In this document: positions 9,166-37,073 of the stretch, piece after piece
Layout: each line of letters opens with the position of its first letter
Numbering within the stretch: position 1 is the first letter of the stretch
Source: an uncultured Bacteroidota bacterium
GTDB taxonomy: Bacteria > Bacteroidota > Bacteroidia > Chitinophagales > LD1
NCBI GenBank assembly: GCA_903927935.1
Contig: CAIYOV010000293.1
Location: forward strand, 1-46,890
DNA: 46,890 bases
Direction of reading: 5' to 3'
Made by a program: the position numbers and the translations under genes
Notes under the pieces: generated by a model
Told to the model about the DNA's origin: nothing
The model's input: the letters and a program-made list of their open reading frames with translations, nothing else
Databases searched by the model: none

Positions 9166-9417
9166 TAACAGGCTTGCGCGCTCGGTCGAGAGCCTTGCGA
9201 CCTATCTCAAAAGGCTTGCGCGCAACTTCAAATCGTTTGCGCGTCATTCCAAATCGTCTGCGCGTTACTTCAAATCGACTGCGCGCTAAACCAAATGCAT
9301 TGCGCGTTACTTCAAATGCTTTGCGCGTCAAGTCAAATCGTCTGCGCGTTACTTCAAACTGTCTGCGCGGCTCCGCAATCCGTCTGCGCGCCAGCTCAAC
9401 ACGACTGCGCGTTTTCG
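9166..9417. repeat. tandem array of 12 x 21-bp direct repeats, consensus CAAATCGTCTGCGCGTTACTT
   Basis: (T/C)TGCGCG recurs at 9174, 9216, 9237, 9258, 9279, 9300, 9321, 9342, 9363, 9384 and 9405, with a degenerate TTGCGA at 9195, so the period is exactly 21. Units 3-12 all start with CAA. Units 5 (9250-9270) and 9 (9334-9354) are identical. Confidence 0.9.
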
Positions 9418-9562
9418 GTGCAGCAGCAAAACTCTATGCAATTTCGGGTCCTTCTCAAGTCCCCTTCATGTGATCAAGGGGCTCACATCTTACTTCAAAG
9501 TGCACATCATGTTTTCTTTCTCTCAAATCATTCGCTTAATTTGGATTCGCAAATAAACAATC

Positions 9563-12500
9563 ATGAAGAACCTCGTCCTTGCTCTCGCACTTTTCATTTC
9601 CATTTTCAGTACACAACATACAATTGCCCAGCGCTGCGCCAGCATGGACCATTTAAAAGACCAGTTGCAGAACGACCCTGCCCTTGCCGCACGCATGCAG
9701 CAAATAGAAACCGAAACCAATCAGTTTGTTTCTTCGTACCATAATACCGGAAGCCGCGCTATTATTACCATACCTGTAGTGGTGCATGTAGTGTATAATA
9801 CAACCGCACAAAATATCAGCAACGCGCAAATACAATCGCAGATAGACCGCCTCAACCTCGACTATCATAAACTGAATACCGATATTAGTTCAGTGCCATC
9901 GGTGTGGCAAAGTTTAGTAGCCGATTACGAAGTTCAGTTTTGCCTCGCTAGCAAAGACCCGAGCGGCAATGCTACTACCGGTATCAGAAGAGTTTCTACC
10001 AGCACCACTTCTTTTTCAACCAACGATAATGTAAAGCGCACGGCCAACGGAGGCGATGATGCCTGGCCGGCAGCATCTTATTTAAACCTATGGGTGTGCA
10101 ATTTAAGCGGAGGCGTCTTGGGCTACGCGCAGTTTCCAGGTGGCGCAGCGGCTACCGATGGAGTGGTTATTACCTACACCGGTTTTGGTACCGGGGGCTC
10201 AGCTCAGGCACCTTATAACTTAGGAAGAACCGCTACGCATGAGGTTGGCCACTGGTTAAATCTATACCACATTTGGGGCGATGACGGCAGCGCCTGCTCG
10301 GGCAGCGACCAAGTGAACGATACCCCTAATCAGGGTTCGGAAAACTATGGCTGTCCTACCTTTCCGCATACAGATGCCTGCTCGGCTTCATCACCGGGTG
10401 TTATGTTTATGAACTACATGGATTACACCGATGATGCCTGTATGTATATGTTTACCAACGGGCAAAAAACACGCAGTCTGTCATTATTTAATAGCGGAGG
10501 TTCAAGAGCATCTTTGCTGAATTCGCAGGGTTGTCAGTCTATTGCCTCTCCACCGGTAGCCAATTTTACGGCAGATGTCGTGAATAGCTGCACTGGTATA
10601 ATCAGGTTTACGGATTTAAGCAGCAATGCGCCTACTTCATGGAGCTGGAATTTTGGCGATGGGCAAACTTCCACCACTCAAAACCCAACGCATTTATTTA
10701 ATGCTAACGGAACCTACACGGTTACCCTTACGGCTACCAATGGTTTTGGTTCTAACACAAAAACACTAACCAACTACATTACTGTAAGCAAACCGGCAGC
10801 ACCGTCAGCCAGCGATGCATCGCACTGCGGCTCGGGAACCTTTTCGCTTACCACTTCCAGCACCAATCCCGTAGCGTGGTTAGATTCGAACGGCACTAAA
10901 GTTTCATCGGCTAATCCTTTTGTTACACCGGTGCTTACACACACCACCACTTACTGGCTGCAGGATACTGTGGGTGGCACGCAATATCATGTAGGTCCTG
11001 CAACCAACTCAGGCAGCGGTGGATATTTGAACAGCAACTGGTCGCTTATTTTTAATGTAAACACAGCTTGTGTTTTGCAGTCGGTTTATGTGTATGCCAA
11101 TGGTGCTGGCAACCGCACCTTTGAATTACGAAATTCAGGAGGAACTGTACTACAGTCGTTAACCGTTAATGTTCCTACCGGAGCAAGTCGCGTTACACTA
11201 AACTTTAATCTGACTACCGGTACCGGTTTTCAACTCGGTTTCGCCATCGGAAGCACCATCAATCTGTATAGAAATAATGCAGGTATGGCTTATCCTTATA
11301 CAGATGCCGGTGGTTACGTAAACATAACCGGTAACAATGCCACCAACGCAACTTCCTACTACTACTATTGCTATGACTGGATTTTACAGGGAACCGGATG
11401 TGTATCGCAGCGCAAAGCGGTGACTGCTGTAGTAAGTGCGGGGTTAAATGCAGCGACTACGGTAACTAACGCTACCTGTGGTTCAAGCAACGGAAATGCC
11501 ACCGTAACTATTACGGGTGGAACGCCTAACTATACCTACAACTGGAGTACCGGAGGAACCGGTCCTTCAGTTTCTAATTTAACTGCGGCCACTTATACCG
11601 TTACCGTAAACGATGCAAACAGTTGCTCCGGTACCGCTACGGCTATTGTGGCTAATTCTTCTTCTCTGGTATCTGCAAAATCATCTACTGATATCACCTG
11701 CTTTGGCGGCAATAACGGAACGGCCTCAGTAAACGTAACCAGCGGAACACCCAACTATACTTATTTGTGGAGTAACCTGGCAAACACCTCTGCAGTGAGT
11801 AATCTAACCGCAGGAAATTATTCTGTCACCATTACCGATGGCAGCAACTGCCAGCATGTTGATTCATTTACACTTACTCAGCCGGCTGATATGACCATTC
11901 AGGTAACTACCAACAGTGCGCATTGCAATGGGCAGGCAACCGGAATGGCGAATGCAACAGCTACCGGTGGTAATTCCGGCTTCATTTTCAATTGGTCTAA
12001 CAGCACGAGCGGACCATCTAATATTAATCTTGCTGCTGGAAATTATGCAGTTACGGTTACCGATGCAAACAGCTGTTCATCCTCATCTACATTTATTATT
12101 GATGAACCTACCGCCATTACCATGAACACCACTTCAACATCGGTAAGTTGTTTTGGTGAGAATAACGGAACCGCAAATGTGATTCCATCAGGTGGTGTCG
12201 GCAACTTCACCTATTCATGGTGCAACGGAAATACCACACACAATGCTTCGAATCTAAGTGCAGGCAATTGTACAGTAACGGTTACAGATGATAATGCCTG
12301 CACCGCAACGGCCAGTGTAACTGTTCAGCAGCCTGCTCAAATTCAAATTACCACTTCAACAACTAACGGCAATGCTTCGGTCGATACGGTTACCGGAGGA
12401 GCATCACCTTTCACATATGTGTGGAGCAACGGACAGACTACCCAAGATATAACAGGACTACTTTCGGGAAATTATGTGGTAACGGTAACCGATAATAATG

Positions 12501-12799
12501 GTTGCTCGGCCGCAGCCGGAGTAACAGTGCTTGACAACCAAATAGGTTCCTTTGCCAACGAAATTTTATTCAGTGTTTTCCCGAACCCGGCTACCAACCA
12601 GGTTATATTGAAATTAGACAAAGTGAATGATAAAACGATGGTGGAACTGAAAAATGTATTGGGGCAAATTCTTTTCAGCAGAAACATTCCGTTGATTCAA
12701 ACTAAAATCGATCTCACTCATTTTGCTAACGGTGTTTACTTTATTGAAGTAAAACAAGGCGATAAAAAATCAGTGAAAGAAATTATAGTGAATAAATAA
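9563..12799 (+). CDS. secreted M43-family zinc metalloprotease (pappalysin/cytophagalysin-like) with PKD domain, uncharacterised middle domain, SprB-type repeats and T9SS type A C-terminal sorting domain
   Basis: 1078 aa with a signal peptide. Metzincin motif HEVGHWLNLYH plus FMNYMDY. PKD signature WNFGDG.TS....P.H.F...G.Y.V.L. Repeated C.G..NG.A.V...GG.P.Y.Y.WS modules. The C-terminus (FSVFPNPATNQVILKL...NVLGQ...IDLTHFANGVYFIEV) fits the type A Por secretion tail. Confidence 0.9.
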   Translation: MKNLVLALALFISIFSTQHTIAQRCASMDHLKDQLQNDPALAARMQQIETETNQFVSSYHNTGSRAIITIPVVVHVVYNTTAQNISNAQIQSQIDRLNLDYHKLNTDISSVPSVWQSLVADYEVQFCLASKDPSGNATTGIRRVSTSTTSFSTNDNVKRTANGGDDAWPAASYLNLWVCNLSGGVLGYAQFPGGAAATDGVVITYTGFGTGGSAQAPYNLGRTATHEVGHWLNLYHIWGDDGSACSGSDQVNDTPNQGSENYGCPTFPHTDACSASSPGVMFMNYMDYTDDACMYMFTNGQKTRSLSLFNSGGSRASLLNSQGCQSIASPPVANFTADVVNSCTGIIRFTDLSSNAPTSWSWNFGDGQTSTTQNPTHLFNANGTYTVTLTATNGFGSNTKTLTNYITVSKPAAPSASDASHCGSGTFSLTTSSTNPVAWLDSNGTKVSSANPFVTPVLTHTTTYWLQDTVGGTQYHVGPATNSGSGGYLNSNWSLIFNVNTACVLQSVYVYANGAGNRTFELRNSGGTVLQSLTVNVPTGASRVTLNFNLTTGTGFQLGFAIGSTINLYRNNAGMAYPYTDAGGYVNITGNNATNATSYYYYCYDWILQGTGCVSQRKAVTAVVSAGLNAATTVTNATCGSSNGNATVTITGGTPNYTYNWSTGGTGPSVSNLTAATYTVTVNDANSCSGTATAIVANSSSLVSAKSSTDITCFGGNNGTASVNVTSGTPNYTYLWSNLANTSAVSNLTAGNYSVTITDGSNCQHVDSFTLTQPADMTIQVTTNSAHCNGQATGMANATATGGNSGFIFNWSNSTSGPSNINLAAGNYAVTVTDANSCSSSSTFIIDEPTAITMNTTSTSVSCFGENNGTANVIPSGGVGNFTYSWCNGNTTHNASNLSAGNCTVTVTDDNACTATASVTVQQPAQIQITTSTTNGNASVDTVTGGASPFTYVWSNGQTTQDITGLLSGNYVVTVTDNNGCSAAAGVTVLDNQIGSFANEILFSVFPNPATNQVILKLDKVNDKTMVELKNVLGQILFSRNIPLIQTKIDLTHFANGVYFIEVKQGDKKSVKEIIVNK

Positions 12800-12885
12800 T
12801 CTGTTTATCACCGGCTTTGTTTAAGCAGTTGTTTAGTTAATACTCTTGCAATAAAATTACTTACTTTAATAAATAAATATTCGGC

Positions 12886-15800
12886 ATGAAGAAGGTTTGC
12901 TTCCTCTCTCTTTTGTGGTTTACAGCAATGCAGTCTTTCGCACAGGGAAAATTTATTGCAAAAGAAGTGAGAGGTGCTGAAGCCAATGCCATTTGGCAGG
13001 GTGCGGAGCATATATGGCTGAAACAGGAAAATACGGTTCCTGCTTTTATACAGTTTCACAATGGCTCTGAACCAGATGAAGAAGAATTCTTTTTCATTCT
13101 CAAAAAAACATTTCACCTCCCTACTTCTTATAACTTCAGTTTAATAAGCGATGAAAGCGACCAGATTGGCTGGCAGCATAAACGCTTTCAGCTAACAATG
13201 AATAGCGTTCCGGTCAGCAACAGTATTTTCATGCTGCATTTGATAGACAGCAAAGTGAAGAAATTCAACGGCTATCTTTTTAAAAATATTTCTACAAATA
13301 CTACGGCAACAGTAAGCGAAACATCGGCCCTTGATTTTGCTTTGGAGAATATTGGAGCGCAAACATATAAGTGGCAATTGCCGGAAGAAGAAAATTTTTT
13401 AAAGATAGAACTTGGCAGTGTCAATGCCTCTTATTATCCTAAAGGTAATCTCGAAATTCTTCAGGTTGGCGATAATGCATCAAACAGCTTTCGCTTAGTC
13501 TGGAAGTTCGACATTTATGCCCACACACCTTTGAGTCGTTATTATGTTTATGTAGACGCTCAAACCGGTGAGATGCTCAAAAAATCTTCTCGAATCCAAA
13601 ACGCTAATGCGACAGGAACCGCAACGACAGTTTATCGGGGCAACCGGACAATCACAACAGATAGTTATAATAGTCAATATCGTTTAAGGGAGGCTCCGCG
13701 CGGCTTGGGTATTCATACCTATAATATGCAAACAGGCACCAACTACGGAAATTCGATTGAGTTTTTAGATGCAAATAATCTCTGGAATAACATAAATGCT
13801 GCAAAGGATCAGTATGCCGGTGATGCACATTGGGGGGGAGAAATGACTTATGATTTTTATACCACCATGGGAAGAAACTCCATTGACAATGCAGGCTATG
13901 CGCTGAATTTATACATGCATTATGACGTAAATTATGTAAACGCATTTTGGGATGGCACACGAATGACTTTCGGGGATGGTAACAGTACATACAATCCCTT
14001 GGTTTCTTTAGATATCACCGGCCATGAAATTTCACATGGACTTACAGAACGTACATCTAATCTCGATTACCAGAACGAGTCCGGTGCATTGAACGAATCT
14101 TTTAGTGATATTTTCGGAACAGCAGTGGAGTGGTATGCCGACTCAACATTGGGAAACTGGCTGATTGGTGAAGATATTGGCAGTCCTTTTCGTTCTATGA
14201 GTAATCCGAACAGTTATGGAGATCCGGATACTTATCTTGGAACAAACTGGTACACCGGCACTGGTGATAACGGAGGGGTTCATACCAACAGCAGTGTGCA
14301 GAATCATTGGTATTACCGTTTATCTCAAGGTGGTTCAGGAACAAACGACATTGGTAATACATTTAATGTTACCGGTATCGGAAGACATAAAGCCACACAA
14401 ATTTCATGGAGAGATAATGTGAACTATCTGATCAGCACTTCCGATTATGCCGATTCAAGATTCTACGCAATCCAATCAGCCAACGATTTATTCGGTGTTT
14501 GCTCACCCGAAGCTATTGCCACGACCAAAGCCTGGTATGCTGTAGGCGTAGGTGGCGATTTTGTTTATGGTGCCGATGCACAGTTTACTGCAACACCGGT
14601 ATCCGGCTGCACCGTTCCCTTTACTGTCAACTTCACAAATGTCAGCACTAACACAAGTTCATACACATGGAATTTTGGTGATGGAGGAACAAGCACGGTT
14701 ACTAATCCTTCGTATACTTATAATACATTGGGAACATATACTGTGAAATTAGTTTCGGATGGTGGTGCGTGCGGAACAGATAGTTTAACCCGCACCAATT
14801 ATATCAGCATCAGTAACATCAATCCTTGTATAGTAATAATGCCAGCTACCGGCAGTTATCAGACACAGACAGCCTGTAACGGAACTGTTTATGATAACGG
14901 AGGCACCGGAAATTATACGAATAACACCAACAGCACTGTAACGATTGCGCCAACCGGTGCATCACAGGTAAAACTTCACTTTACCCAATTTGCTATGGAG
15001 AACACCTACGACTTTTTATATGTGTATGATGGCCCAACAACGGGAAGTCCTGTTATAGGTAGTTATACCGGCACAACTATTCCGGCAGATATTACTTCGA
15101 CCGGCTCATCTATTACCATTCGGCAATCAACTGATCCTGCAGTAGTTGACGTGGGCTTTACCATTCAATGGAGCTGTATTAGTCCAAACGCTCCTCCGGT
15201 TGCTAATTTCAAAGCGGATGTAACACAAAGCTGTAGCGGCAATATAAAATTCACAGACCTAAGCACCGGTGGGCCAAATGTATGGCTATGGAATTTTGGT
15301 GACGGCACTACATCAACAGCACAACATCCAACCCATTCGTATATCAGCAATGGAACTTATACAGTTTCTTTAAAAGCAACCAACACATTCGGAAACAATA
15401 CGATAACAAAGAATAATTATATAAGCATTGCAAAACCAGCTGGACCTTCCGTTGCCAATCAATCCAGTTGCGGGCCGAATTCTTTTACACTAAATTTATC
15501 AGATGTAAATCCGGTAACATGGTTTGATTCTACAGGAAATGTTATGGCCAATGGGAACCCGTTTGTTACTCCTGTTCTGAACAACACAACAACCTATTTT
15601 GTACAAGATACACAAACCCAACCTATTTATAAAGTAGGTGCATTGAATAACCAGATTGGCGGTGGAGCAGGACAATATTATAGCACCACACAATCACGCG
15701 CCCTTCGTTTTCGCGTGTATAAAAATTCGAAATTAGTAAGCGTGTATGTGTATGCGCAAGGTGCCGGTTACAGAACTGTTCAGTATCGCGATTCGTTAGG

Positions 15801-18375
15801 TGGTGTTATAACCAACAAAACCGTTTACATGCCTAACGGTGCCAGCAGAATTTATTTGAATATTGATTTGATACCCGGTGGACCTTACGAACTTGGTTTG
15901 CGAGATACCATGAATTTGTGGCGTAACAGTGCAGGAGCTGTTTACCCATATAACGATGCAAACGGGATTGTGAGCATCATCGGAAATAATGCTGCCGGCT
16001 CTGCGGCTTACTATTATTTTTTTTACGATTGGGAAGTAAAAGAGAACGATTGCATTTCGCAACGCGTACCGGTTGTAGCTACGGTTACCCCTGTTGTTAC
16101 CGCTGCCACTGCGTCAACTAATGTTTCATGCAACGGAGGATCTAACGCGACTGCAAGTATCACTCCTTCTGGCGGCACACCTAACTTTACTTATCATTGG
16201 AATAACAATGCTTCAACCTCTTTAATAACTAATCTTACAGCAGGAACTTATACGGTTACTGTTACCGATGTATCTGGTTGTTCAATCACTGCATCAAAAA
16301 CCATTACACAGCCAACGGCACTTGTAACATCTGTCACGGTAACAAATGTTTTATGTAATGGAGGAAATACCGGTGCAATTAATTTAAATGTAACGGGTGG
16401 AGTAACAAACTATTCTTACAATTGGGGTGCAGGAATTATTACACAAAACAGATCTTCACTTTCAGCTGGAACTTATACAGTTACAATTACAGACGGGAAT
16501 TTGTGTACAGCAACAACTTCTGCCATAGTTAATGCACCAAGTCCGTTAGTTGTAATTACAACCGCTACGAATGCAACATGCGGACAAAACAACGGAAGTG
16601 TTTTAGCAAATTCAACGGGAGGGACTTCAGGTTATACTTATTCCTGGAGTAACGGATCGAATACTTCTTCACTTTCAAATCTTACTGCAGGACTTTTCAC
16701 GGTTACCGTAAATGATAACAATAGTTGTTCCTCTACATCAACGGCTACTATAATCAACACCGGTTCAATTATTGCAACGGGTTCTTCTGCAAATGCAAAC
16801 TGTTTTGGAAGTGCTGACGGAAGTGTGGCTGTAAATGTGGTCAGTGGTACCCAGCCTTATTCTTATATCTGGAGTAACGGTGCCTCTGCTTCTTCCATTA
16901 GTAATGTAACAGCCGGAAATTATTCGGTAACAATTACAGATGGGGTTGGATGTGTCGCAACTATTACTCAAACAGTTTCAGAGCCACCATTGCTGAATGT
17001 TTCTCTTGCATCTACCGATGCTACCTGTGGTTCTGTAAACGGAACAGCATCTGTTAACGCCACCGGGGGAACACAAGGATACAATTATTTGTGGAGTAAT
17101 AATACTACCACTTCCTCTATCTCAAATCTTGCAGCCGGGAATTATTCGGTAACAGTATCCGATGCTCATAACTGCACTGCTGTAAATTCAGTAATTGTAA
17201 CTATCGTTTCTTCTATTTCGGCAAGTGTTTCTTCGACAAGTGCAAAATGTAACGGAAGTAGCGATGGAACAGCAATAGTAACAGTTGCTGGTGGCACACA
17301 ACCAATAAATTATTTGTGGAGTAATGGTGCATCTGCTTCATCTCAATCCACTCTTTCAAGCGGAAATTATGTGGTAACCATTACCGATGGAAGTAACTGT
17401 GTGCTTATACAGAGCATTACTATTTCTGAACCAACTCCTATTACACTTTTTGTTACTGCTAAGGAACCTTCTTGCAATAATGCAACAGATGGAAGTGCAG
17501 GTGTATCTGCCATAGGAGGTAATTCGAATTATTTATTTAATTGGTCGAATGCTGCCAGTGGGGATAGTATTAATAATTTGGTTGCCGGCAATTATTCGGT
17601 AACAGTTCATGATGCTAATAATTGCTCCGCTGTTTCCGATTTTATATTGATAGAACCTTCAGCACTTTCTGTAATTCCAACTACTACTGATGTTCTGTGT
17701 AATGGAGACCAAAGCGGAACCGCCAGTGTTTCCGTTTCCGGGGGAACTCCGGGATATTCATATCAATGGTGTAATGGAAACATTCTCGTATCAACCCAAA
17801 ATCTTTCAGCAGGTGTATGCACTGTAACTATTACTGACCAAAATGATTGCACTACAAGCATTACTATCCATACTTCAGAACCAAATCCAATTCAGTTTGC
17901 AACTTCTACCAGCAATTCAAACTTTGGGGCAAATGATGGAAACGTAGTGGTTAGTAATTTAACCGGTGGGGTAGGTTCTTATACATTTACATGGAGTAAT
18001 GGCGACACCACACAAAATCTCACAAACGTTGCAGGTGGAACTTATTCAATAACCGTTACAGATAATAATGGATGTGTTGAAACAGCAACTGTTATTGTTC
18101 AGGATAACCCGAACATAGTAAATCAGATTTCGAATGAAATTTCATTGAAAATTTATCCAAACCCGACTTCAACTGAAATAACTGTTGTGATGAGTAAGCC
18201 GAATGAAGGTTCCATATTGAATTTGAAAAATGTTTTAGGGCAAACCCTTCTTACAAAATATATTTCATCAACAGAGACGAAAATTGACCTCTCGTTTTTT
18301 GCTAGTGGAGTTTATGTTTTGGAGGTTAAGAGCGGTGAGAAGAATGCAATGAATGAAATTGTAATCAGCAGATAA
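12886..18375 (+). CDS. secreted M4-family (thermolysin-like) zinc metalloprotease with PKD domains, CUB-like domain, shared middle domain, about ten SprB-type repeats and T9SS type A C-terminal sorting domain
   Basis: 1829 aa with a signal peptide (LLWFTAMQSFAQ). M4 active site HEISHGLTE followed by GALNESFSDIFG, and GGVHTNS. Two PKD signatures (WNFGDGGTS, WNFGDGTTS). The C-terminus (LKIYPNPTSTEITVV...NVLGQ...IDLSFFASGVYVLEV) is a type A sorting domain. Confidence 0.9.
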   Translation: MKKVCFLSLLWFTAMQSFAQGKFIAKEVRGAEANAIWQGAEHIWLKQENTVPAFIQFHNGSEPDEEEFFFILKKTFHLPTSYNFSLISDESDQIGWQHKRFQLTMNSVPVSNSIFMLHLIDSKVKKFNGYLFKNISTNTTATVSETSALDFALENIGAQTYKWQLPEEENFLKIELGSVNASYYPKGNLEILQVGDNASNSFRLVWKFDIYAHTPLSRYYVYVDAQTGEMLKKSSRIQNANATGTATTVYRGNRTITTDSYNSQYRLREAPRGLGIHTYNMQTGTNYGNSIEFLDANNLWNNINAAKDQYAGDAHWGGEMTYDFYTTMGRNSIDNAGYALNLYMHYDVNYVNAFWDGTRMTFGDGNSTYNPLVSLDITGHEISHGLTERTSNLDYQNESGALNESFSDIFGTAVEWYADSTLGNWLIGEDIGSPFRSMSNPNSYGDPDTYLGTNWYTGTGDNGGVHTNSSVQNHWYYRLSQGGSGTNDIGNTFNVTGIGRHKATQISWRDNVNYLISTSDYADSRFYAIQSANDLFGVCSPEAIATTKAWYAVGVGGDFVYGADAQFTATPVSGCTVPFTVNFTNVSTNTSSYTWNFGDGGTSTVTNPSYTYNTLGTYTVKLVSDGGACGTDSLTRTNYISISNINPCIVIMPATGSYQTQTACNGTVYDNGGTGNYTNNTNSTVTIAPTGASQVKLHFTQFAMENTYDFLYVYDGPTTGSPVIGSYTGTTIPADITSTGSSITIRQSTDPAVVDVGFTIQWSCISPNAPPVANFKADVTQSCSGNIKFTDLSTGGPNVWLWNFGDGTTSTAQHPTHSYISNGTYTVSLKATNTFGNNTITKNNYISIAKPAGPSVANQSSCGPNSFTLNLSDVNPVTWFDSTGNVMANGNPFVTPVLNNTTTYFVQDTQTQPIYKVGALNNQIGGGAGQYYSTTQSRALRFRVYKNSKLVSVYVYAQGAGYRTVQYRDSLGGVITNKTVYMPNGASRIYLNIDLIPGGPYELGLRDTMNLWRNSAGAVYPYNDANGIVSIIGNNAAGSAAYYYFFYDWEVKENDCISQRVPVVATVTPVVTAATASTNVSCNGGSNATASITPSGGTPNFTYHWNNNASTSLITNLTAGTYTVTVTDVSGCSITASKTITQPTALVTSVTVTNVLCNGGNTGAINLNVTGGVTNYSYNWGAGIITQNRSSLSAGTYTVTITDGNLCTATTSAIVNAPSPLVVITTATNATCGQNNGSVLANSTGGTSGYTYSWSNGSNTSSLSNLTAGLFTVTVNDNNSCSSTSTATIINTGSIIATGSSANANCFGSADGSVAVNVVSGTQPYSYIWSNGASASSISNVTAGNYSVTITDGVGCVATITQTVSEPPLLNVSLASTDATCGSVNGTASVNATGGTQGYNYLWSNNTTTSSISNLAAGNYSVTVSDAHNCTAVNSVIVTIVSSISASVSSTSAKCNGSSDGTAIVTVAGGTQPINYLWSNGASASSQSTLSSGNYVVTITDGSNCVLIQSITISEPTPITLFVTAKEPSCNNATDGSAGVSAIGGNSNYLFNWSNAASGDSINNLVAGNYSVTVHDANNCSAVSDFILIEPSALSVIPTTTDVLCNGDQSGTASVSVSGGTPGYSYQWCNGNILVSTQNLSAGVCTVTITDQNDCTTSITIHTSEPNPIQFATSTSNSNFGANDGNVVVSNLTGGVGSYTFTWSNGDTTQNLTNVAGGTYSITVTDNNGCVETATVIVQDNPNIVNQISNEISLKIYPNPTSTEITVVMSKPNEGSILNLKNVLGQTLLTKYISSTETKIDLSFFASGVYVLEVKSGEKNAMNEIVISR

Positions 18376-24141: not shown

Positions 24142-25947
24142 TTAATCCCAGAAACAGTAACCACCTTCTGAGATCAATTTATCAGCAACTGCTCTGCGAA
24201 TTTCTTTGGTGTTAATCATTTCATATTTAGTGAAACGTTTTAAACCCATTAACATCATACGAAGTTCATCGCCACCTGCAAATGATACGAGAGCAGATTT
24301 TCCTGCTATGTTTATTCTGTCCATCGCATCAAAGAAATAGCACTTCACCATGTCCACATAAATTTGTGAGGCTTCCTGTCCGTGAAGGTTTACTAATTTT
24401 TCAGCGCGTAGCATTCCACTTTCCATGTTAAGAATATCAGCCATCATATCAGAACAGTGCATCAGCAGTTCTTGCTCTTTCTCAAGACCCATCATTAATT
24501 TTTGAACTGCAGAGCCGGCAACTAAAAGGAATGCCTTCTTCGCATTCTTCAACGCATTTCTTTCTGCACCAAAAATATCATCAGCATCGGTCGAAGAAAA
24601 ATCAGGAACACTCATCAATTCTTTTTGAATAGCCATGCCAGGTGTCATTAAATCTAATTTTCCTTTCATGGCAAATTTCAGCAATGCATCCATAGAAAGC
24701 ATGCGATTGATTTCGTTTGTGCCTTCAAAAATTCTATTAATGCGACTATCTCTGTAAGCGCGCGCCATAGGATACTCTTCAATAAATCCATAGCCACCGT
24801 GAATCTGTAAAGCTTCATCTACAGTAAAGTCAAGTACTTCGCTTCCCATAACTTTCAGCAACGCACACTCTACCTGAAACTCTTCTGCCCCACCGGTTAA
24901 ATATTCGGTCATTGATTTTCCCTGTGCTTTCAATTCATGTTCCTTCTGCAATATCAAATCACAAACACGGTAAGAAGCACTTTCTGTCATCCAGGTGCGA
25001 ATAGTCATTTCTCCAAGTTTGCCTTTAATAGCTCCGAACTGCTGAATAGGTGTTTTGAACTGTTGACGCTCTGCAGAATATTTAACGGCTGTACTTATAA
25101 CTCGTTTTGTGCCGCCTAATACTCCGTTGCATAATTTGTAACGACCAATATTTAAAATCTGAAATGCGATTTTGTGTCCTTTGCCTTCTTCACCCAGTAA
25201 ATTTTCAACCGGAACTTTTACATCGTTGAAAAACACCGCGCAAGTGGAAGAAGATTTAATTCCCATTTTCTTTTCTTCTGCACCTATACTTAAACCTTCA
25301 TAACCCCGCTCAACAATAAAACCGGTGAATTTTTTATCGTCACCATCAATTTTTGCAAATACCACAAACACATCGGCAAAGCCTGCATTGGTTATAAATA
25401 TTTTTTGCCCGTTGAGGATGTAATGTTTTTTATCTGTACTTAACACTGCTTTTGTTTTTGCACCAAGAGCATCTGAACCGCTTCCGGGTTCTGTCAAAGC
25501 ATAAGCAGCTTTCAGTTCACCGGTGGCTAATTTTGGAAGATATTTTGCGCGTTGCGCATCCGTTCCGTAATAAATAATCGGACAAGTTCCTATACCTGTG
25601 TGTGCGCCAATGCCAACACTTACACCGTGTCCCCAGCCCAGAACTTCAGTAACGTACGAAAAAGTCATGAGGTCTTTTCCCAAGCCGCCATACTCTTCGG
25701 GAATATGAATACTGAGCAAACCAAGTTCACCGGCTTTTTCAATCACACCGGCACACAGCAATGGGTCTTTCTCTAATTTCTCAAGTGGAATATCAATTTC
25801 TTTTCGCACAAAATCTTTCGTCATTTCGCGCATAGCAGTTTGCTCTTCGTTGATCTGTTCAGGAATATAAACGTCCTGCCATTGCGATTCTTTAATCAGG
25901 TATTCGCCTCCTTTAAGTGTGGTTGCTTTTGTTGTTGAGGTTTCCAT
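24142..25947 (-). CDS. long-form acyl-CoA dehydrogenase (about 600 aa, with extra C-terminal helical domain)
   Basis: 601 aa with ACAD motifs: [45 protein letters not shown]-terminal extension of about 180 aa follows, as in FadE-like long ACADs. Confidence 0.9.
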   Translation of the reverse strand: METSTTKATTLKGGEYLIKESQWQDVYIPEQINEEQTAMREMTKDFVRKEIDIPLEKLEKDPLLCAGVIEKAGELGLLSIHIPEEYGGLGKDLMTFSYVTEVLGWGHGVSVGIGAHTGIGTCPIIYYGTDAQRAKYLPKLATGELKAAYALTEPGSGSDALGAKTKAVLSTDKKHYILNGQKIFITNAGFADVFVVFAKIDGDDKKFTGFIVERGYEGLSIGAEEKKMGIKSSSTCAVFFNDVKVPVENLLGEEGKGHKIAFQILNIGRYKLCNGVLGGTKRVISTAVKYSAERQQFKTPIQQFGAIKGKLGEMTIRTWMTESASYRVCDLILQKEHELKAQGKSMTEYLTGGAEEFQVECALLKVMGSEVLDFTVDEALQIHGGYGFIEEYPMARAYRDSRINRIFEGTNEINRMLSMDALLKFAMKGKLDLMTPGMAIQKELMSVPDFSSTDADDIFGAERNALKNAKKAFLLVAGSAVQKLMMGLEKEQELLMHCSDMMADILNMESGMLRAEKLVNLHGQEASQIYVDMVKCYFFDAMDRINIAGKSALVSFAGGDELRMMLMGLKRFTKYEMINTKEIRRAVADKLISEGGYCFWD

Positions 25948-25972: not shown

Positions 25973-27765
25973 TTAGAAACAGTATTGATCTTCTTCAATG
26001 AGTTTATCTGCAATTCTTCTTCTTGCTGCAATGGTGTTGTAAGCTTCATATTTTGTAAAACGCTTTAATCCCATCAGCATAATGCGAAGCGTATCTCCAT
26101 CATTAAATGCTGTGATAGCATGTTTGCCCGAAAGATTTATTTTTTCAAGAGCATCGCTGATATAAGTTTTTGCCATATCAATTTGCAAACTTGCAGCAGC
26201 TTCTCCGCGAATGCTGATTAATTTTTCGGTTCGAAGCAAAACCGATTCGCAAACGAATAATTCAATCAGCATGTCAGAAATGTTCATGATAATTTCCTGT
26301 TCCTTATCTAAATTGTTCATGAACTTCTGAACGGCTGCACCGGCTGTCATCAATATTGCCTTCTTAGCATTCTGCAATGCTTTCTTTTCTGCAGCAAAAA
26401 AATCATCCGAGTTATCGCTGCTGAAATCAGGAACACTCATCAATTCTTTTTGAACTGCCATAGCAGGAGTGAATAAATCAACTTCCCCTTTCATGGCTTT
26501 CTTCACCAACATGCCTACTGCAAGCAACGATTTATTTCATTTGTTCCTTCAAAAATTCTGCTGATTCTCGCATCGCGGTATGCACGAGCCACAGGATACT
26601 CTTCGCTAAAACCGGTACCGCCAAAAACCTGCACCGCTTCGTCCACCACATACGCCAAAATTTCTGAGCCAAACACTTTTAAGATTGCGCACTCAATAGA
26701 GTATTCTTCTGCGGCAATTAATTTTGCTTGCACCTTGTCAGTGCCTTTTGCCGAAAGGTCGGCAATCATATCATCAATTAAACCACCGGTGCGGTATGTT
26801 GCCGATTCGCAAGCGTATGTTTTAATTGCCATTTCTGCCAGTTTGTGTTTAATAGCACCAAACGAAGAAATGGGAACGTTGAATTGAACTCTTTCGTTGG
26901 CATATTTAGTGGCTACAGTTATTGTTTTTTTTGAACCACCTAAATTGAGAACTGCCAATTTGTAACGACCAATGTTCAGCACATTAAAGGCGATTTTGTG
27001 TCCTTTCCCAATTTCACCCAACAAATTTTCTACCGGTACTTTTACATTATTAAAAAATACCTGACGAGTAGACGAACCTTTAATCCCCAATTTATCTTCT
27101 TCGCTGCCTAAAGAAATTCCTTCGCTCTTTGCATCAACAATAAAGCCGGTGAATTTTTCCCCATCTACTTTTGCAAACACAGTAAAAATGTCGGCAAACC
27201 CCGCGTTTGTAATCCACATTTTTTGCCCGTTCAAAATGTAGTGCTTGCTATCTTCAGTTAATACAGCTTTTGATTTTGCGCCCAATGCATCGCTTCCGCT
27301 ACCCGGTTCTGTTAGGCAGTAAGCGGCTTTAATTTCGCCACTCGATAAACCAGGCAAATATTTTTGTTTCTGTTCAGCAGTGCCGAAATACAAAATTGGC
27401 AGTGTGCCGATGCCGGTGTGTGCTGCAAACGCGGCGGCAAATGAATGTGCAGTTCCCATCTCTTCATTGATAACTGTATCAGTGCAAACATCTACTCCCA
27501 TGCCGCCAAATTCTTCGGGCACGCTTGCACCGAGTAAACCGAGTTCACCGGACTCCAACATAAGTTGTTGTGTAAGTCCCGGTTCTTGTTTCTCAATTTG
27601 TTTTACAATGGGGTGGATGCGATTGGTAACAAAATCTGATGCCGTTTGAGCAAACATTTTTTGTTCTTCGCTAATTTCATCTTTAATAAAAACATTTTGA
27701 AACGAAGTTTCCTTAATTAAAAATTCTCCGCCTTTCAAGATTGTTTTGGTTTGAGTTGTTTCCAT
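25973..27765 (-). pseudogene. tandem paralog of the long-form acyl-CoA dehydrogenase, interrupted by a single -1 frameshift near 26515-26527 (pseudogene or sequencing error)
   Basis: ORF 26515..27765 ends ...[17 protein letters not shown] 25973..26527 continues in another frame with (LL)[35 protein letters not shown], which is colinear with the intact neighbour (..EINRMLSMDALLKFAMKGKLDLMTPGMAIQKELMSVPDFSS). Adding one T to the TT in AATCGTTGCTTGCA restores NR-LLAVGML. Confidence 0.8.
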
Positions 27766-29220: not shown

Positions 29221-29222
29221 GA

Positions 29223-31658: not shown

Positions 31659-31725
31659 ATTTTATTGTGTATTTATTCTGTAAGATTTTTTTCGGACAAC
31701 GAATTTATAGGTTTATTTTTTTATC

Positions 31726-31741
31726 TACCAACCGTTTGGTA
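31726..31741. promoter_or_regulatory. candidate TetR operator between the tetR stop and the fadB-like start
   Basis: TACCAACCGTTTGGTA is an imperfect palindrome (half-sites TACCAA / TTGGTA). A 14/16 match occurs in reverse orientation at 32419-32434, upstream of the TetR gene. Confidence 0.45.
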
Positions 31742-31745
31742 AGAA

Positions 31746-32375: not shown

Positions 32376-32418
32376 GTCCTTGAAATACGGGATACGAAAG
32401 TAAAAACAGTTTTTAATT

Positions 32419-32434
32419 TACCAAACGGTCGGTC
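32419..32434. promoter_or_regulatory. candidate TetR operator in the tetR / acyltransferase divergent intergenic region
   Basis: TACCAAACGGTCGGTC has the reverse complement GACCGACCGTTTGGTA, which matches 14 of 16 positions of the 31726-31741 site. Confidence 0.45.
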
Positions 32435-32474
32435 GGGAAAATATTTTGAGCTTTCGGTTACATTCGCCTCCACT

Positions 32475-33053
32475 ATGGGAAAACTTATTTCAAAACTGAT
32501 CTTCAAAATTTTCGGCTGGACATTTAAAGACCATGTTGGCGGTGGATATAGCCGTTGCGTAATGATTGCAGCACCGCATACCAGCAATTGGGACCTAGTT
32601 TTTGCCCGCGCGGCTTTTTACCTGATGGATATTCCGGTACGCTATACGGTTAAGAAAGAATGGATGCGTTTTCCGTTCGGTTTGATTTTCGGACCACTGG
32701 GGGCTATTGCTATTGACAGAAGCCCTAAAAAAGAAGGCGAGGAAAGACAAAGTATGACCGAAGCGATGATTGAGCTTTTTAAGCAAAATGATAATCTGGC
32801 GGTGATGGTAACTCCCGAAGGTACCCGCTCGCTGCGGACAAAATGGAAAACCGGTTTTTATCATGTAGCGGTTGGAGCTAAAGTGCCTATTGCCCTCGGC
32901 TATTTAGATTACAAAAACAAAGTGGCTGGTGTGGGCAAACTTGTTCATCCAAGTGGTGATATTCAGAAAGACATGAGGGAGATAATGGATTTCTACAAGA
33001 ACATTCAGGCGAAATATCCCGAAAATTTTTCGGTCGATTTAGATTATTTCTAA
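32475..33053 (+). CDS. 1-acyl-sn-glycerol-3-phosphate acyltransferase family protein (PlsC-like)
   Basis: I start at the internal ATG 32475 (MGKLISKLIFKIFGW...). The tracked ORF start at 32310 would overlap the TetR gene. HX4D acyltransferase motif HTSNWD and a PEGTRS motif are present. Confidence 0.8.
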   Translation: MGKLISKLIFKIFGWTFKDHVGGGYSRCVMIAAPHTSNWDLVFARAAFYLMDIPVRYTVKKEWMRFPFGLIFGPLGAIAIDRSPKKEGEERQSMTEAMIELFKQNDNLAVMVTPEGTRSLRTKWKTGFYHVAVGAKVPIALGYLDYKNKVAGVGKLVHPSGDIQKDMREIMDFYKNIQAKYPENFSVDLDYF

Positions 33054-33068
33054 AGCGGTCAGACTGCG

Positions 33069-33938
33069 TCAAACCGGGTTTGCAAAGAACTTCAACAGTT
33101 TTTCGTTTACCCAATCCGGATTGTCGTGTTGCACGAAATGTCCGCTGGTTGAATCGTATAATATTTCAAAACCCTTTTCGCAATATTCTTTGGTGTTATA
33201 GGTGAGTTCTTTACCAAGGGCAATATCATGTTCACCCCACAGCATCAGCACAGTTGCTTTTATTTTCGGAAATTGGGGAGATGAAAATAAATTCCGGAAT
33301 GCAGCACGGTAATATGCGATTGCTGACTTTATTGCTTCGGGTTGTTGATACGCTTCCACATATTTCATTACATCTTCTTCATTGAAAGCCTTTTTGTTCA
33401 TCGGCATTACTTCAAACATTTTTCTGAAAAACTTTTCTGTGCCCACTAATCTTTCAGGAACAAAAGGCAATTGGAAAAAGAAGATATACCAGCTCTTCTT
33501 CCATTGAGAAAGATTGAAACTTTCAAAAGCGCGTTTCATTTCGTTGGGGTGAGGCACATTTAAAATAGCCAGCTTCTTTACCACACCTGGGTGAAAAGCA
33601 GCTACAGCCCATGCCACTGCTGCTCCCCAATCGTGGCCTACTACTATGGCGCTTTCTACGCCCAATGCTTTTATGAGTTCGGCAATATCTTTTGCCAGAA
33701 TTTCAATTTTGTAATCGGAAACATTTGCAGGTTTTTCGCTTAAGTTATAGCCGCGCATATCCGGTGCTACTACCCGGTATTGTTTCGACAACACCGGAAT
33801 CTGATTTCTCCATCCGTACCAAAACTCGGGAAAGCCGTGAAGCAGAACAACCAATTCGCCAGTTCCTTCTTCTACATAATGAAGTTTGATGCCGTTGGCC
33901 TGAATAAAATTTGATGTCATATGAGTATGAAAATACAA
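33069..33938 (-). CDS. alpha/beta hydrolase (epoxide hydrolase / haloalkane dehalogenase-like fold)
   Basis: 289 aa. HGFPEFWYGWRNQIP, nucleophile elbow VVGHDWGA, C-terminal SGHFVQHD. The start could instead be the ATG at 33920 (MTSNF...). Confidence 0.85.
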   Translation of the reverse strand: MYFHTHMTSNFIQANGIKLHYVEEGTGELVVLLHGFPEFWYGWRNQIPVLSKQYRVVAPDMRGYNLSEKPANVSDYKIEILAKDIAELIKALGVESAIVVGHDWGAAVAWAVAAFHPGVVKKLAILNVPHPNEMKRAFESFNLSQWKKSWYIFFFQLPFVPERLVGTEKFFRKMFEVMPMNKKAFNEEDVMKYVEAYQQPEAIKSAIAYYRAAFRNLFSSPQFPKIKATVLMLWGEHDIALGKELTYNTKEYCEKGFEILYDSTSGHFVQHDNPDWVNEKLLKFFANPV

Positions 33939-34030
33939 AAACCTGTTTCACATGCATTAACGTTTCAAACGCTGATCGTGATAGAAAATAATATACTTTC
34001 GGTTCCGTTAATTGAATTCAATTTACCGTT

Positions 34031-34732
34031 GTGAAAAAACTGTTTCTTCTATTTCCGCTTTTTGTTTTTGCAGCGAATGTTGCATTGGCACAGGATGATG
34101 AATTACCCCCACCCAGCAGTAAACCCAAACAAACCGAAGAGAAAAAGAGCGACCCAAAGCCCCCTGATGTAAAAGATTTCAAAGGCTTTAGTAAGCCAAA
34201 GAAATTCGATATGTCGAAACTGCTGATTGAGCCGATTGTTAATCTTTCAATCAGCCAATTCAGAATAGATATCGGATTTTCACCTTCGGTAGCTTACCGT
34301 GTTTGGCAACCCAAAAATGCAAAACAAAAATCGGGGAACGTTGGCTTGTTTGTGGGAGGGGGAGTTACTTATTCATATACGCGCATCAACGAAACAGCCA
34401 ACCTGAAATATAATATTCAGACATACGGAGCGGGCCCGCTAATTCAGTATACCATCTGGCGAGGTTTGTTTGCGAGGGTTAAGCTGGAACTGCTGGGAAG
34501 GAAAATTCCAGTTTCACCAGGTCCTTATTATAATGGTCAGTATCATGTTATATATACAAATAAATTTACTCCAGCCTGTCTATTAGGTGCCGGCTATAAT
34601 CTGCTTCAGAGTAAAAACATTTTTGTTCCGCTGATTGTATCGTATGATTTGCTGCATTCGGTAGTAGATAAAAACTATTCTATTTACCCTCGCGGGTTTA
34701 CTGTTCAGCTAGGGTTTATTACGCTTTTCTAA
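34031..34732 (+). CDS. hypothetical exported protein, possibly a small outer-membrane beta-barrel
   Basis: 233 aa with a GTG start. Signal peptide LFPLFVFAANVALAQ, then a Pro/Lys-rich linker and alternating hydrophobic strands, ending in an aromatic residue (..GFITLF). Confidence 0.55.
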   Translation: MKKLFLLFPLFVFAANVALAQDDELPPPSSKPKQTEEKKSDPKPPDVKDFKGFSKPKKFDMSKLLIEPIVNLSISQFRIDIGFSPSVAYRVWQPKNAKQKSGNVGLFVGGGVTYSYTRINETANLKYNIQTYGAGPLIQYTIWRGLFARVKLELLGRKIPVSPGPYYNGQYHVIYTNKFTPACLLGAGYNLLQSKNIFVPLIVSYDLLHSVVDKNYSIYPRGFTVQLGFITLF

Positions 34733-34739
34733 TTTTTTT

Positions 34740-35453
34740 TTATGCGTTTGAAATAAAGCGCACCAGGCTCCTTTTTGCTACCGGCAACATGGTTTCGGGC
34801 AATGGGAATGAATATTTGAATTCTACCGCGTAAGTGGCAGGGTTAGGGACGTTCCGGTGTTCTTCTATCAGTTTATATTTTACCTGTTCGTAGGTATCAG
34901 ATACGGAAGTGGTGTAATTGAAGAGAAACTGTGTGTGAATGCCGCGGAACTTTTCGTGAAGGTTTTCAAAAATAGTGATGCGGTAGAAATAAACGTTGAC
35001 TAATTTCTTAATAAAATCGGAGAGGAAGAAATATCCTTCATCGGTGCGGAGGGGAAGAATGCCTATGGGAAATACTTCCAGCTTGTCTTCTACTTCTTCA
35101 TACAGTTCTTTTCCTAAGCCTATTTTGTTTTCTATTTCGGGTAAGGCAAATTCTACAATAGAATCAATTTCGCGGAGCAGTTCATCGTCTTCAAACTGTT
35201 GTTTATACGCCACTTTAAATTTTTCGAAATCGAGTTTCGAAATCTGTTTCGGAAAATCTTTTGCTACAGCTAACTTTTTTTCGCGGAAGAGCTGCAGGTT
35301 GTTGTAATGCTCTATCAACTCCGAAAGTTTGGGATACAGTTTTTTCTCATCAAAGTTTTTGGTGGTTTGTTGCAGATAGCCGAGCAGCAGATATTTTTTG
35401 TATTCAAAATCTATGGTGCCTTCGGTAAGCCAGTTTGGTTGCAATGTTTCCAT
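34740..35453 (-). CDS. hypothetical cytoplasmic protein
   Basis: 237-aa ORF with no signal peptide, charged and helical-looking. I do not recognise any motif. Confidence 0.6.
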   Translation of the reverse strand: METLQPNWLTEGTIDFEYKKYLLLGYLQQTTKNFDEKKLYPKLSELIEHYNNLQLFREKKLAVAKDFPKQISKLDFEKFKVAYKQQFEDDELLREIDSIVEFALPEIENKIGLGKELYEEVEDKLEVFPIGILPLRTDEGYFFLSDFIKKLVNVYFYRITIFENLHEKFRGIHTQFLFNYTTSVSDTYEQVKYKLIEEHRNVPNPATYAVEFKYSFPLPETMLPVAKRSLVRFISNA

Positions 35454-35636
35454 GGCAATTCGTTTTGTTATTTAACGGAAGTTAGCAGGAGAAGTTGTAG
35501 GGACCCAATGCTAATTAACAAGTAGTAATGCAGAATGTCCATAAACTGTACTCACGCCATAATTCAAAACCGTAGCACGGGTATACTTTACAACCAAATT
35601 AGTTTTTGTAATATAGCCCACACAAAAAAATCTGCA

Positions 35637-36692
35637 ATGAGAAAAAATCTATTTATCAGTTTAATACTTACCGGCATTTTCTGTCAGTCGGTATTTGCAC
35701 AGTATTTTACACTACGGGTAGGCGGTGGCTATGCGTGGCCTGGAATTACTGCCACACAAGGCGTGATGGGCCCTAAGGTTGATCCGTTATCACCGGATAA
35801 AGACGGGCTGCTGCCTATGAGCAACATGAACGATTCGATTCCTTCTATTCAAAGTGTTTATGGTTCTTACGGAAAGGGAATGAACCTTTCGCTTGGCTTT
35901 GGATATATGATAAACCCCTACATTGGCGTAGAGTTGGGCGTTGCCTATTTAAAGAGCGCTAAAATTACCTGCGACCAAACCCGACAGTTGAGTATTCAAA
36001 CCGGTTTTGGTGTGCCGCCTTCTTTTTCAACGGTACCCTATTATATGAATGCGCATATCACTACCAGTGCCTTTGGAGTTTCGCTGATGCCATCGGTTAT
36101 TTTAAAAGGTGCTAAACCGGGTTGGAAAATTTATCCTTACGGACATGTTGGAATTTCGATGCCGATATTTGGCGGGTTGGAGCACGACATAACTATTGAT
36201 GTTGACCCGAATGTTTTTACCGAGCAGCCGCTGCTGGCTAGCAGCATTTACGGAAGCCCTTACTTTTTAGGAAAACAAACTAAGGTGAAACTGAAAACCG
36301 AAGGCACCGTTTCGATTGGGGTGAATGGCGGTATGGGTATTGCGTACAATCCAATTCCGCTCATTAGTATTATGGCAGAAGTGAACGGACAATATTTGGT
36401 AACCCGTGCTAAATCGTCAAAGATTACCCAATGGGATAGCGAGAAAGCAGATGGAACTTTTGAGAGCCGACTGGCCGACCGCGGTGTTTACCGTACCCAG
36501 TTTAACTATGTAGATAAGCTGACGAATACATCGAACAACGAAGATTACAACAGCACCACCGATAAGACCAAACCTAAAGACGATATTCGTCCGGCTGGTC
36601 CGTTCAGCAACCTTGGATTTAATGTTGCGGTTTGCTTTAACCTAAGTAAAGAAATTTTGAAACCGTTTAAAGAAAAGAAGAAGAAAGGCTAA
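35637..36692 (+). CDS. hypothetical outer-membrane beta-barrel-like protein
   Basis: I start at the ATG 35637 (MRKNLFISLILTGIFCQSVFAQ is a clean signal peptide). The tracked start at 35535 adds 34 non-signal residues. Gly/aromatic-rich alternating segments with a Lys-rich tail. Confidence 0.6.
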   Translation: MRKNLFISLILTGIFCQSVFAQYFTLRVGGGYAWPGITATQGVMGPKVDPLSPDKDGLLPMSNMNDSIPSIQSVYGSYGKGMNLSLGFGYMINPYIGVELGVAYLKSAKITCDQTRQLSIQTGFGVPPSFSTVPYYMNAHITTSAFGVSLMPSVILKGAKPGWKIYPYGHVGISMPIFGGLEHDITIDVDPNVFTEQPLLASSIYGSPYFLGKQTKVKLKTEGTVSIGVNGGMGIAYNPIPLISIMAEVNGQYLVTRAKSSKITQWDSEKADGTFESRLADRGVYRTQFNYVDKLTNTSNNEDYNSTTDKTKPKDDIRPAGPFSNLGFNVAVCFNLSKEILKPFKEKKKKG

Positions 36693-36720
36693 GCCCATTT
36701 ATTTTACTTGAATTGAGTAA

Positions 36721-36755
36721 AGGTCATTCTGAGTCTTTTCGGAATGACCTTTTTC
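36721..36755 (+). terminator. rho-independent terminator after the 35637..36692 gene
   Basis: AGGTCATTC-(12-nt loop)-GAATGACCT is a 9-bp perfect stem followed by TTTTTCTTT. Confidence 0.7.
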
Positions 36756-36821
36756 TTTGCATTTTTTCAAATATTGATGATTTTTAAAGAAGAATGGCTG
36801 GAAAATGAAGAAGTCCCTCAT

Positions 36822-37073
36822 GGACTACTCCGCGTCCATCTTACAATTTTTGTCGTCCACCAAGGACTTTCAAAAAAGTAACTTAGTCTGCATGAATTCC
36901 TCGGTGGACTCCAAGGAGACTAACTTGGACTACATGGAGTCTAACTTGGTCTCCTTGGAGCGAAACTTACTTTTAAAGAAAAGTAACTTGGACTACTGCG
37001 CGTCCGTCTTGGTCTCCGAGTAGTCCAAGGTTCCGTCCGAGTAGTCCGAGAAGGACTAATCCATTTTTTAGCA
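36822..37073. repeat. array of 12 x 21-bp units, consensus GGACT-N6-AGTC(C/T)-AACTT (16-bp dyad plus 5-bp spacer)
   Basis: Cutting the sequence every 21 nt from 36822 gives: ggactactccgcgtccatctt / acaatttttgtcgtccaccaa / ggactttcaaaaaagtaactt / agtctgcatgaattcctcggt / ggactccaaggagactaactt / ggactacatggagtctaactt / ggtctccttggagcgaaactt / acttttaaagaaaagtaactt / ggactactgcgcgtccgtctt / ggtctccgagtagtccaaggt / tccgtccgagtagtccgagaa / ggactaatccattttttagca. Units 0 and 8 are 19/21 identical and 168 bp (8 x 21) apart. Confidence 0.85.

Follow-up and report, generated by a model that had tools for sequence, protein, structure and literature searches.

Intergenic tandem arrays locked to a 21-bp unit in the genome of an uncultured Chitinophagales-like bacterium

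Two 12-unit arrays on one contig

The contig CAIYOV010000293.1 (46,890 nucleotides (nt), analysed over its entire length and called the window, or C293, below) is one of 556 in a 3.94-Mb assembly (G000), and carries two tandem arrays of 21-nt units between genes, array 1 at 9166–9417 and array 2 at 36822–37073. The best match to its GyrB (92%) comes from Chitinophagales bacterium STL-BAC31, which points to an uncultured Chitinophagales-like member of the Bacteroidota. A preliminary description of this DNA regarded the two arrays as one repeat family, since both span 12 × 21 = 252 bp and share short sequence words. Here we describe the two loci, set them within the genome-wide class of 21-bp arrays to which they belong, and weigh what such arrays might do.

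Array 1 lies on the plus strand between gyrB (7102–9081) and a gene for an M43 metallopeptidase (9563–12799, plus strand), whose product is predicted by Pfam to carry PKD domains, SprB repeats and a C-terminal sorting domain of the type IX secretion system (T9SS). The intrinsic terminator hairpin of gyrB, located by a terminator scan and from the sequence, occupies 9109–9134 (plus strand), with its T-run abutting the left end of the array-1 element, and the peptidase gene starts 146 nt from the array. Unit alignment and Tandem Repeats Finder (TRF; score 137–238) give 12 units in exact 21-nt register, with the consensus CAAATCGTyTGCGCGTTACTT. Positions C1, A2, A3 and T10–G15 are kept in 11–12 of the 12 units, such that the CAA and TGCGCG blocks stand ~10 nt apart. 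The few variable positions recur, TRF reports a higher-order structure of 42/84 nt, and the units toward the edges are degenerate. Two reading frames are open in array 1, although it lies between a terminator and the next gene. Its single-strand folding is close to that of shuffled sequence (z = –1.2).

Array 1 is part of a dispersed element of ~295 bp, present in four copies of 90–98% identity amid unrelated flanks. The other copies lie on contigs C539 (90% identity), C255 (96%) and C126 (98%), and unit order, leader and tail are conserved among them. In the four-copy alignment, a ~38-nt leader (GCTTTTTTATrCmTTAAACATTCATTTTAACTCAATAACAsG, 9128–9165, plus strand) is copied together with the array, and homology of the C539 copy to the element begins at this leader, at 9128. 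A TTTTyGGT tail, common to all four copies, overlaps the end of the last unit (9397–9417); the right edge of the element lies just past the array, at 9418–9424 (plus strand), and the copies diverge after ~9424. Neither inverted ends nor an evident target duplication were seen in this alignment. All four copies are oriented toward a gene start, 46–164 nt away, the genes in question encoding the M43 peptidase, a ParE-like topoisomerase subunit, a dihydroorotase-like protein and an uncharacterised protein of 230 residues. No array, and no synteny, was found after gyrB in relatives with 80–92% GyrB identity. Nor was a TGCGCG-type array found in any of 18 genus-mates, one of which gave an isolated pattern match where a contig ends.

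Two observations concern the surroundings of this element. The copy at C293:9128–9424 lies just downstream of gyrB, and that at C126:2210–2431 just upstream of the ParE-like gyrB paralogue, which may be coincidence. In the window, the M43 gene is the first of two neighbouring genes for large T9SS-sorted metalloproteases (9563–18375, plus strand), M43 followed by M4/thermolysin, each with PKD domains and SprB repeats.

Array 2 is degenerate. A lag scan and unit alignment give 12 × 21 nt with the consensus GGACTACnnGGAGTCyAACTT, so that each unit amounts to a dyad, GGACT-N6-AGTCC, plus AACTT. Self-match at lag 21 is 0.62 over 36855–37020, with no signal at either lag 20 or lag 22. Agreement with the consensus reaches at least 15 of 21 positions in six of the 12 units and 9–12 positions in the rest, and TRF detects just ~3 copies (36905–36968). 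As a single strand, the array folds much better than shuffled sequence (z = –9.2). All-against-all BLAST found no second copy of it in the genome. Two terminal inverted arms frame the element, at 36797–36830 on the left, where the minus strand reads a small hairpin and T-run, and at 37039–37072 on the right, where the plus strand has a hairpin and T-run; the two pair over 34 nt with 76% complementarity.

Upstream of array 2, the terminator scan places the terminator of an outer-membrane protein (OMP) β-barrel gene (35535–36692) at 36719–36752 (plus strand). On the other side lies a convergent gene on the minus strand (37193–38395), assigned by Pfam to the BD-FAE/α-β hydrolase esterases and equipped with a T9SS sorting domain; a hairpin and T-run follow it at ~37140–37175, as read by eye. 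Because the end of the esterase gene, and not its start, faces the array, array 2 sits in a promoter-less gap between convergent genes. No array was found beside the esterase orthologues of three relatives (G012, G010 and G002). No stop-free frame crosses the full length of array 2. An open reading frame (ORF) of 72 codons (36805–37023, plus strand; MKKSLMDYSAS...SNLDYMESNLVSLERNLLLKKSNLDY...) covers most of it and shows an N-L heptad pattern; given that the class as a whole lacks a coding signature (below), this ORF is probably an artefact of the repeat.

A genome-wide class of 21-bp arrays

To find further arrays, we scanned the complete assembly for self-match at fixed lags. Under the strict setting (147-nt window, 62% match threshold), 75 arrays were detected at lag 21, compared to 0–7 at every other lag between 15 and 30. 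Looser settings gave 96–136 arrays at lag 21, 133–165 at lag 42 and 2–4 at lag 22, with none at lags 19, 20 or 23. Over lags 5–129, only 21, 42, 63, 84, 105 and 126 stand out; lags 20 and 22 yield at most 3 arrays, lags 31, 32, 52 and 53 none, and coding repeats account for most of the small peaks seen at multiples of 3 or 9. About 150 arrays are thus locked to 21 or 42 nt. The preliminary description had allowed that the equal length of arrays 1 and 2 would be coincidental if the genome held no others and the unit logos had little more than ACTT in common; the absence of other arrays is clearly not the case. The number of units is also constrained: among 131 complete arrays it peaks at 11–12, with a median of 12 and an interquartile range of 10–14. 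With a median of 12 across the class, 12 × 21 = 252 bp is simply the typical size of an array, and the equal geometry of the two arrays, which had been judged too unusual to be accidental, indeed reflects the mode of the entire class.

There is roughly one array every 26 kb. Just 12 of 166 fall within genes, and 110 of the 288 intergenic gaps of at least 300 bp (38%) contain one. Occupancy is 28 of 88 for divergent gaps, 56 of 151 for tandem gaps and 26 of 49 for convergent gaps, and gene starts and gene ends face arrays about equally often (137 versus 132). A stop-free frame is missing from all six frames in 38% of arrays, compared to 0.4% of shuffled perfect arrays, and no codon phase was seen in unit-to-unit variation across the class. 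Heptad (seven-residue) coding repeats were considered as an explanation and rejected, since frames are often closed and variation is not codon-phased. Contig ends hold 38 of the 166 arrays, and 57 ORFs of a simple gene call are made mostly of array sequence.

In sequence, the arrays differ widely. Non-redundant unit types number ~95, and 35 families are multi-copy; families have 1–8 copies, and for most family pairs homology is confined to the array plus 30–60 nt on either side. In arrays inspected by eye, the ends are degenerate and the central units more uniform. We found no flank motif, leader or terminal repeat common to the families, the best 7-mer being present in 22 of 282 flanks, and no universal word among the 95 unit types, the best one reaching 8%. 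Two words are nonetheless commoner than expected genome-wide: (A)CAGAA(C)/GTTCTG(T), in 7–8 of the 95 otherwise unrelated unit types (~1 expected), and GGAAG/CTTCC, in 11 of 95 (3.3 expected). Dyad arms of at least 5 nt are found in 32% of units versus 12.5% of shuffles. Unit conservation has raised power at the 10.5-nt harmonic (0.185, compared to 0.099 for permuted columns; P = 7 × 10^–9), of which the spacing of CAA and TGCGCG in array 1 is a plain example, and likewise at the 21-nt harmonic. The A/T profile of the units shows no 10.5-nt periodicity, and A-tract phasing was rejected. Comparison with 72,556 plasmids, with phages and with Rfam revealed no similarity to the arrays.

We then asked how arrays 1 and 2 stand to one another. 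Their common period and unit count are borne out, array 1 being clean and array 2 degenerate. Unit ends of the form (T/A)ACTT, cited earlier as a sign of kinship, do occur in 4 of 12 units of array 1 and 5 of 12 of array 2, and CGCGT-type words are present in array 2 (CTGCGCGT at 36990 and CCGCGT at 36822), but at a different offset within the unit from those of array 1. The cyclic two-strand profile similarity between the two arrays reaches 0.324 at best. Array 1 is closer to 80% of the genome's other arrays than it is to array 2, the counterpart figure for array 2 being 35%. As this similarity is no better than that of unrelated arrays, the ACTT and CGCGT words that the two have in common do not exceed chance. 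The actual relatives of array 1 are the copies on C255, C126 and C539, array 2 not among them, and period and unit count are properties of the whole class. That the two are diverged copies of one element, or targets of two related sequence-specific DNA-binding proteins, accounts for their period, their unit count, the few ACTT ends and the two CGCGT-containing units, but with unit logos alike only by chance we regard it as very improbable; with ~95 unit types, related sequence-specific binding proteins are unlikely as a general rule. Judged by their unit profiles, arrays 1 and 2 each represent the class independently and are not copies of each other.

An association with T9SS cargo, named earlier as one to look for, was not significant either for arrays overall (11.7% versus 7.7% of genes, P = 0.06) or for those upstream of gene starts (4.9% versus 4.0%, P = 0.58).

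Elsewhere in the window are a thiamine pyrophosphate (TPP) riboswitch (RF00059, 63.5 bits) at 44594–44696 (plus strand), upstream of a gene starting at 44749, and, on the minus strand at 25973–27765, two overlapping ORFs (25973–26527 and 26515–27765) beside a 601-codon ORF (24142–25947), which look like one gene split by a frameshift.

Linked genes, relatives and known systems

Several uncharacterised paralogous families of this genome, of 80, ~211, ~225, ~316 and ~320 residues, carry an array immediately upstream in the majority of their copies. The ~211-residue proteins are helical with an FN3-like C-terminus, and those of ~320 residues show a weak CarboxypepD_reg match. The 80-residue family, recognised by the motif MKKITKEEAAKL...GSGWxVERV, has just 172 members, all of them unnamed, among 5.8 billion proteins; in G000, its copies lie on C211, C504, C550, C141, C17 (two), C20 and C36. 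Searches of Pfam, NCBIfam and PHROG with this protein gave no match, and its AlphaFold model (predicted local distance difference test score 80) had no significant match among solved folds (best E = 0.2, template-modelling score below 0.5). Upstream of 20 of 20 homologues in eight genus-mates, lag 21 scored highest among lags 15–29, with scores of 0.47–0.75 (16 of 20 at 0.60 or above) versus 0.38–0.54 at other lags. All three homologues found in public genomes likewise had a 21-nt register upstream, as read from the sequence, and every copy examined, in G000 and at the homologue loci (L131–L133 and L174–L193), has its own upstream array. At some of these loci the periodicity extends up to the ATG. 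The unit sequence is different and unrelated in each case. For the 211-residue family, 4–5 of 8 foreign homologues have a 21/42-nt array.

The linkage between array and gene is kept through >50% protein divergence, which suggests that arrays are retained against the tendency of bacterial genomes toward deletion. Among the homologues compared, deeply diverged members still show the upstream-array architecture, with the unit sequence wholly replaced. These families are confined to the array-bearing subset of genomes. One array-bearing genome, G021, is without them, and since it has arrays but no copy of the 80-residue gene, this protein was set aside as an unlikely 'ruler'.

To assess distribution, we sampled 11 relatives over 80–400 kb apiece. 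Besides G000, arrays are present in G002 and G014, of the same genus, and in G021, of another family, where they are irregularly spaced along a 1.46-Mb contig. None was seen in 240 kb of G012 or in the samples of G004, G009, G010, G023 and G024, while G019 and G022 gave one weak lag-21 match each, at the detection threshold (0.58–0.59). Arrays with a TGCGCG core and 21-nt spacing are more widespread, at 120 or more loci in several phyla, distant ones among them; Firmicutes, Bacteroidales and other groups are represented, and their units otherwise differ. These loci include L222, L231, L237, L273 (Fictibacillus macauensis) and L270 (Cerasibacillus quisquiliarum), both cultured Firmicutes, and L253 and L249, which lie in metagenome-assembled genomes of Prevotellaceae and Dysgonamonadaceae. 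The arrays in cultured Firmicutes could serve as experimental models.

Several known systems share part of this geometry. The iterons of R6K, P1 and F, the parC/ParR system and sopC (12 × 43 bp) consist of tandem direct repeats, each some two or four helical turns long, and such iterons and partition centromeres comprise about 10–12 units bound cooperatively on one face by small dimeric proteins, as in the working model set out below. A replicon has just one or a few of them, of fixed sequence and adjacent to the cognate rep or par gene, whereas here ~150 chromosomal arrays differ in sequence and lack plasmid similarity. No Rep or Par gene lies beside array 1 or array 2, the neighbours being gyrB and the M43 peptidase, OMP and esterase genes. 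CRISPR arrays and tandem interspaced guide RNA (TIGR) arrays resemble the present ones as phased short intergenic repeats, but here the whole 21-nt unit repeats, unique spacers are absent and no Rfam repeat matches. TIGR arrays form a band at 18 nt and CRISPR arrays one at 60–79 nt (bioRxiv 10.64898/2026.10.21.760802). The 21-nt period falls outside both.

Tandem repeats of constant size (20–21 nt) and variable sequence are reported in bacteria by Subirana and Messeguer (J Bacteriol 2020;202:e00229-20; Int J Mol Sci 2021, PMC8161180). Passages of PMC8161180, which deals with finished genomes, mainly of Bacillus, Paenibacillus, cyanobacteria and actinobacteria, describe non-coding repeats with units of 20–21 or 52 nt, constant in size and variable in sequence, which form several species-specific families per genome, are taxonomically patchy and in Bacillus contain a characteristic short sequence within the repeats of one species. 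The same passages point out the two-helical-turn length and propose either small RNAs or a protein able to polymerise along DNA only if the repeat size is constant. The correspondence is close. One unit length prevails genome-wide in that class, and here only 21 and its multiples are populated; sequence varies between arrays that fall into several families, here 95 types with 35 multi-copy families; the repeats are non-coding, as are all but the 12 of 166 arrays that lie in genes; and species-specific families of patchy occurrence are found in both. A species-wide short motif, as in Bacillus, is not found here, where the top words reach 7–8 and 11 of 95 types. By their sequence features, the present arrays match the constant-size, variable-sequence class in every defining feature tested but this motif. 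What goes beyond those passages of PMC8161180 is the sharp 12-unit mode, the dispersal of whole arrays, the 38% occupancy of long gaps and the linkage to orphan families.

The nearest element described in the Bacteroidota is BrickBuilt of Porphyromonas gingivalis, a minisatellite of the MITE type with a 23-nt unit, a leader and a tail, present in 19 intergenic copies and with demonstrated promoter activity (PMC4596501). Both it and the arrays described here consist of spacer-less units of about two turns, and are intergenic and multi-copy. BrickBuilt combines leader and tail with inverted ends; here, array 1 has a leader and tail in its four copies, and array 2 has the partly complementary arms. 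BrickBuilt is a single 23-nt family with common inverted-repeat ends, whereas here ~95 types share a 21-nt length and no common termini.

What the arrays may do

The reading we favour, with a probability of roughly 0.55, is that both arrays belong to a class of non-coding minisatellites locked to 21 bp, which most likely act as phase-dependent platforms for a putative protein along one face of the DNA. Twenty-one base pairs make two turns of B-DNA, and this would be the only period to keep a dozen units on the same helical face. Arrays would then work, and stay in register, at the level of DNA. A putative oligomer or filament with a two-turn step could bind cooperatively along that face, and an identical unit at each step, of whatever sequence, would offer every protomer its best contact. 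An array upstream of a promoter might modulate the gene in question, whereas elsewhere it may serve structurally or simply be tolerated. The one-face geometry at 21 bp, together with the 10.5-nt harmonic in conservation, favours a platform of this kind. Also counted for this reading are the period lock, the preferred unit number, the non-coding character, the diversity of units and the dispersal of arrays, the enrichment of dyads, the gene linkage kept as unit sequences change, the patchy distribution, and the polymerising protein suggested in PMC8161180.

Several points weigh against a protein platform. No short word is common to all arrays, unlike the species-wide motifs of Bacillus. The excess at 10.5 nt could partly reflect patchy conservation, as the 21-nt harmonic is also raised. 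The promoter-less convergent gaps are occupied at the highest rate (26 of 49), which indicates that a purely promoter-linked role is not general. In a wedge model, bending is no greater for real units than for shuffled ones. Finally, patchy distribution and dispersal of whole arrays fit a selfish element equally well.

Such an origin is the alternative that survives best, although we consider it unlikely. The arrays would be MITE-like mobile minisatellites comparable to BrickBuilt, which proliferate in certain lineages and do nothing for the host, and linkage to genes would reflect co-mobilised cassettes. Movement of whole arrays into unrelated flanks, the 35 multi-copy families, patchiness even inside one genus, the 34-nt imperfect terminal inverted arms of array 2 and the restriction of array-linked orphan families to array-bearing genomes are all in keeping with this, and the 23-nt minisatellite of P. 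gingivalis with its 19 intergenic copies provides a precedent (PMC4596501). Families without a common flank motif or terminal repeat (22 of 282 flanks for the best 7-mer), and an array 1 that lacks inverted ends or an evident target duplication, are harder to reconcile with it. Mobility also leaves unexplained why exactly 21 bp and ~12 units recur across ~95 unrelated types, and gene linkage that outlasts >50% protein divergence speaks for retention in the face of deletion.

Somewhat less probable again is that the arrays act as RNA, in the form of repeat RNAs or long 5' leaders that would serve as small RNAs, protein sponges or structured leaders. The strong folding of array 2, the hairpin-capable third of the units and the periodicity that reaches the ATG at some loci of the 80-residue family would suit such a role, and according to passages of PMC8625621 and PMC8161180 the 52-nt constant-size repeats of Bacillus coagulans are transcribed. 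Yet array 1 is unstructured, stems of at least 5 nt are absent from two thirds of the units, and no Rfam family matches. Moreover, a strict 21-nt unit with a 10.5-nt harmonic is natural for duplex DNA and meaningless for RNA.

Intrinsic curvature, in which a two-turn repeat would add bends in phase and the resulting curve would be the function, is highly improbable: the modelled end-to-end/contour ratio does fall to 0.75 at period 21 (0.94 and 0.91 for the same units at 20 and 22), and twist sums per unit lie nearer 720 degrees than in shuffles (4.6 versus 6.8 degrees, P = 2 × 10^–5), but real units bend by 12.9 degrees per unit compared to 14.9 for shuffled ones and their A/T profile lacks a 10.5-nt periodicity. 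These bend results are model-dependent and exploratory. On this basis any array of 21-bp period is moderately curved and real units are not selected for bend, and selection for curvature was accordingly dropped as a candidate.

Returning to the phase-dependent platform, it can be extended in a way that we put forward tentatively. The arrays may form the DNA side of a phase-locked nucleoprotein system that has yet to be described and is largely blind to sequence, in which a putative lineage-specific protein with a two-turn step, or a ruler-type enzyme, would bind or build platforms of ~12 units on any repeat. The orphan families (80, ~211, ~225, ~316 and ~320 residues) would then travel as self-contained cassettes, each with a private array, and the same logic may span phyla.

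Arrays of this kind have a practical effect, in that they break short-read assemblies and create spurious ORF calls. The class has been published yet is obscure, and what is added here is a very dense example from the Bacteroidota, a preferred array size, and gene families with a private array, which offer concrete handles for experiments. Satellite DNA is usually scarce in bacterial genomes. That length is kept while sequence varies, in over a third of long intergenic gaps, argues for selection or for a mechanism that measures two turns and ~250 bp, and the class could be the mark of a nucleoid or regulatory protein that has gone unrecognised, or of a new repeat-building process.

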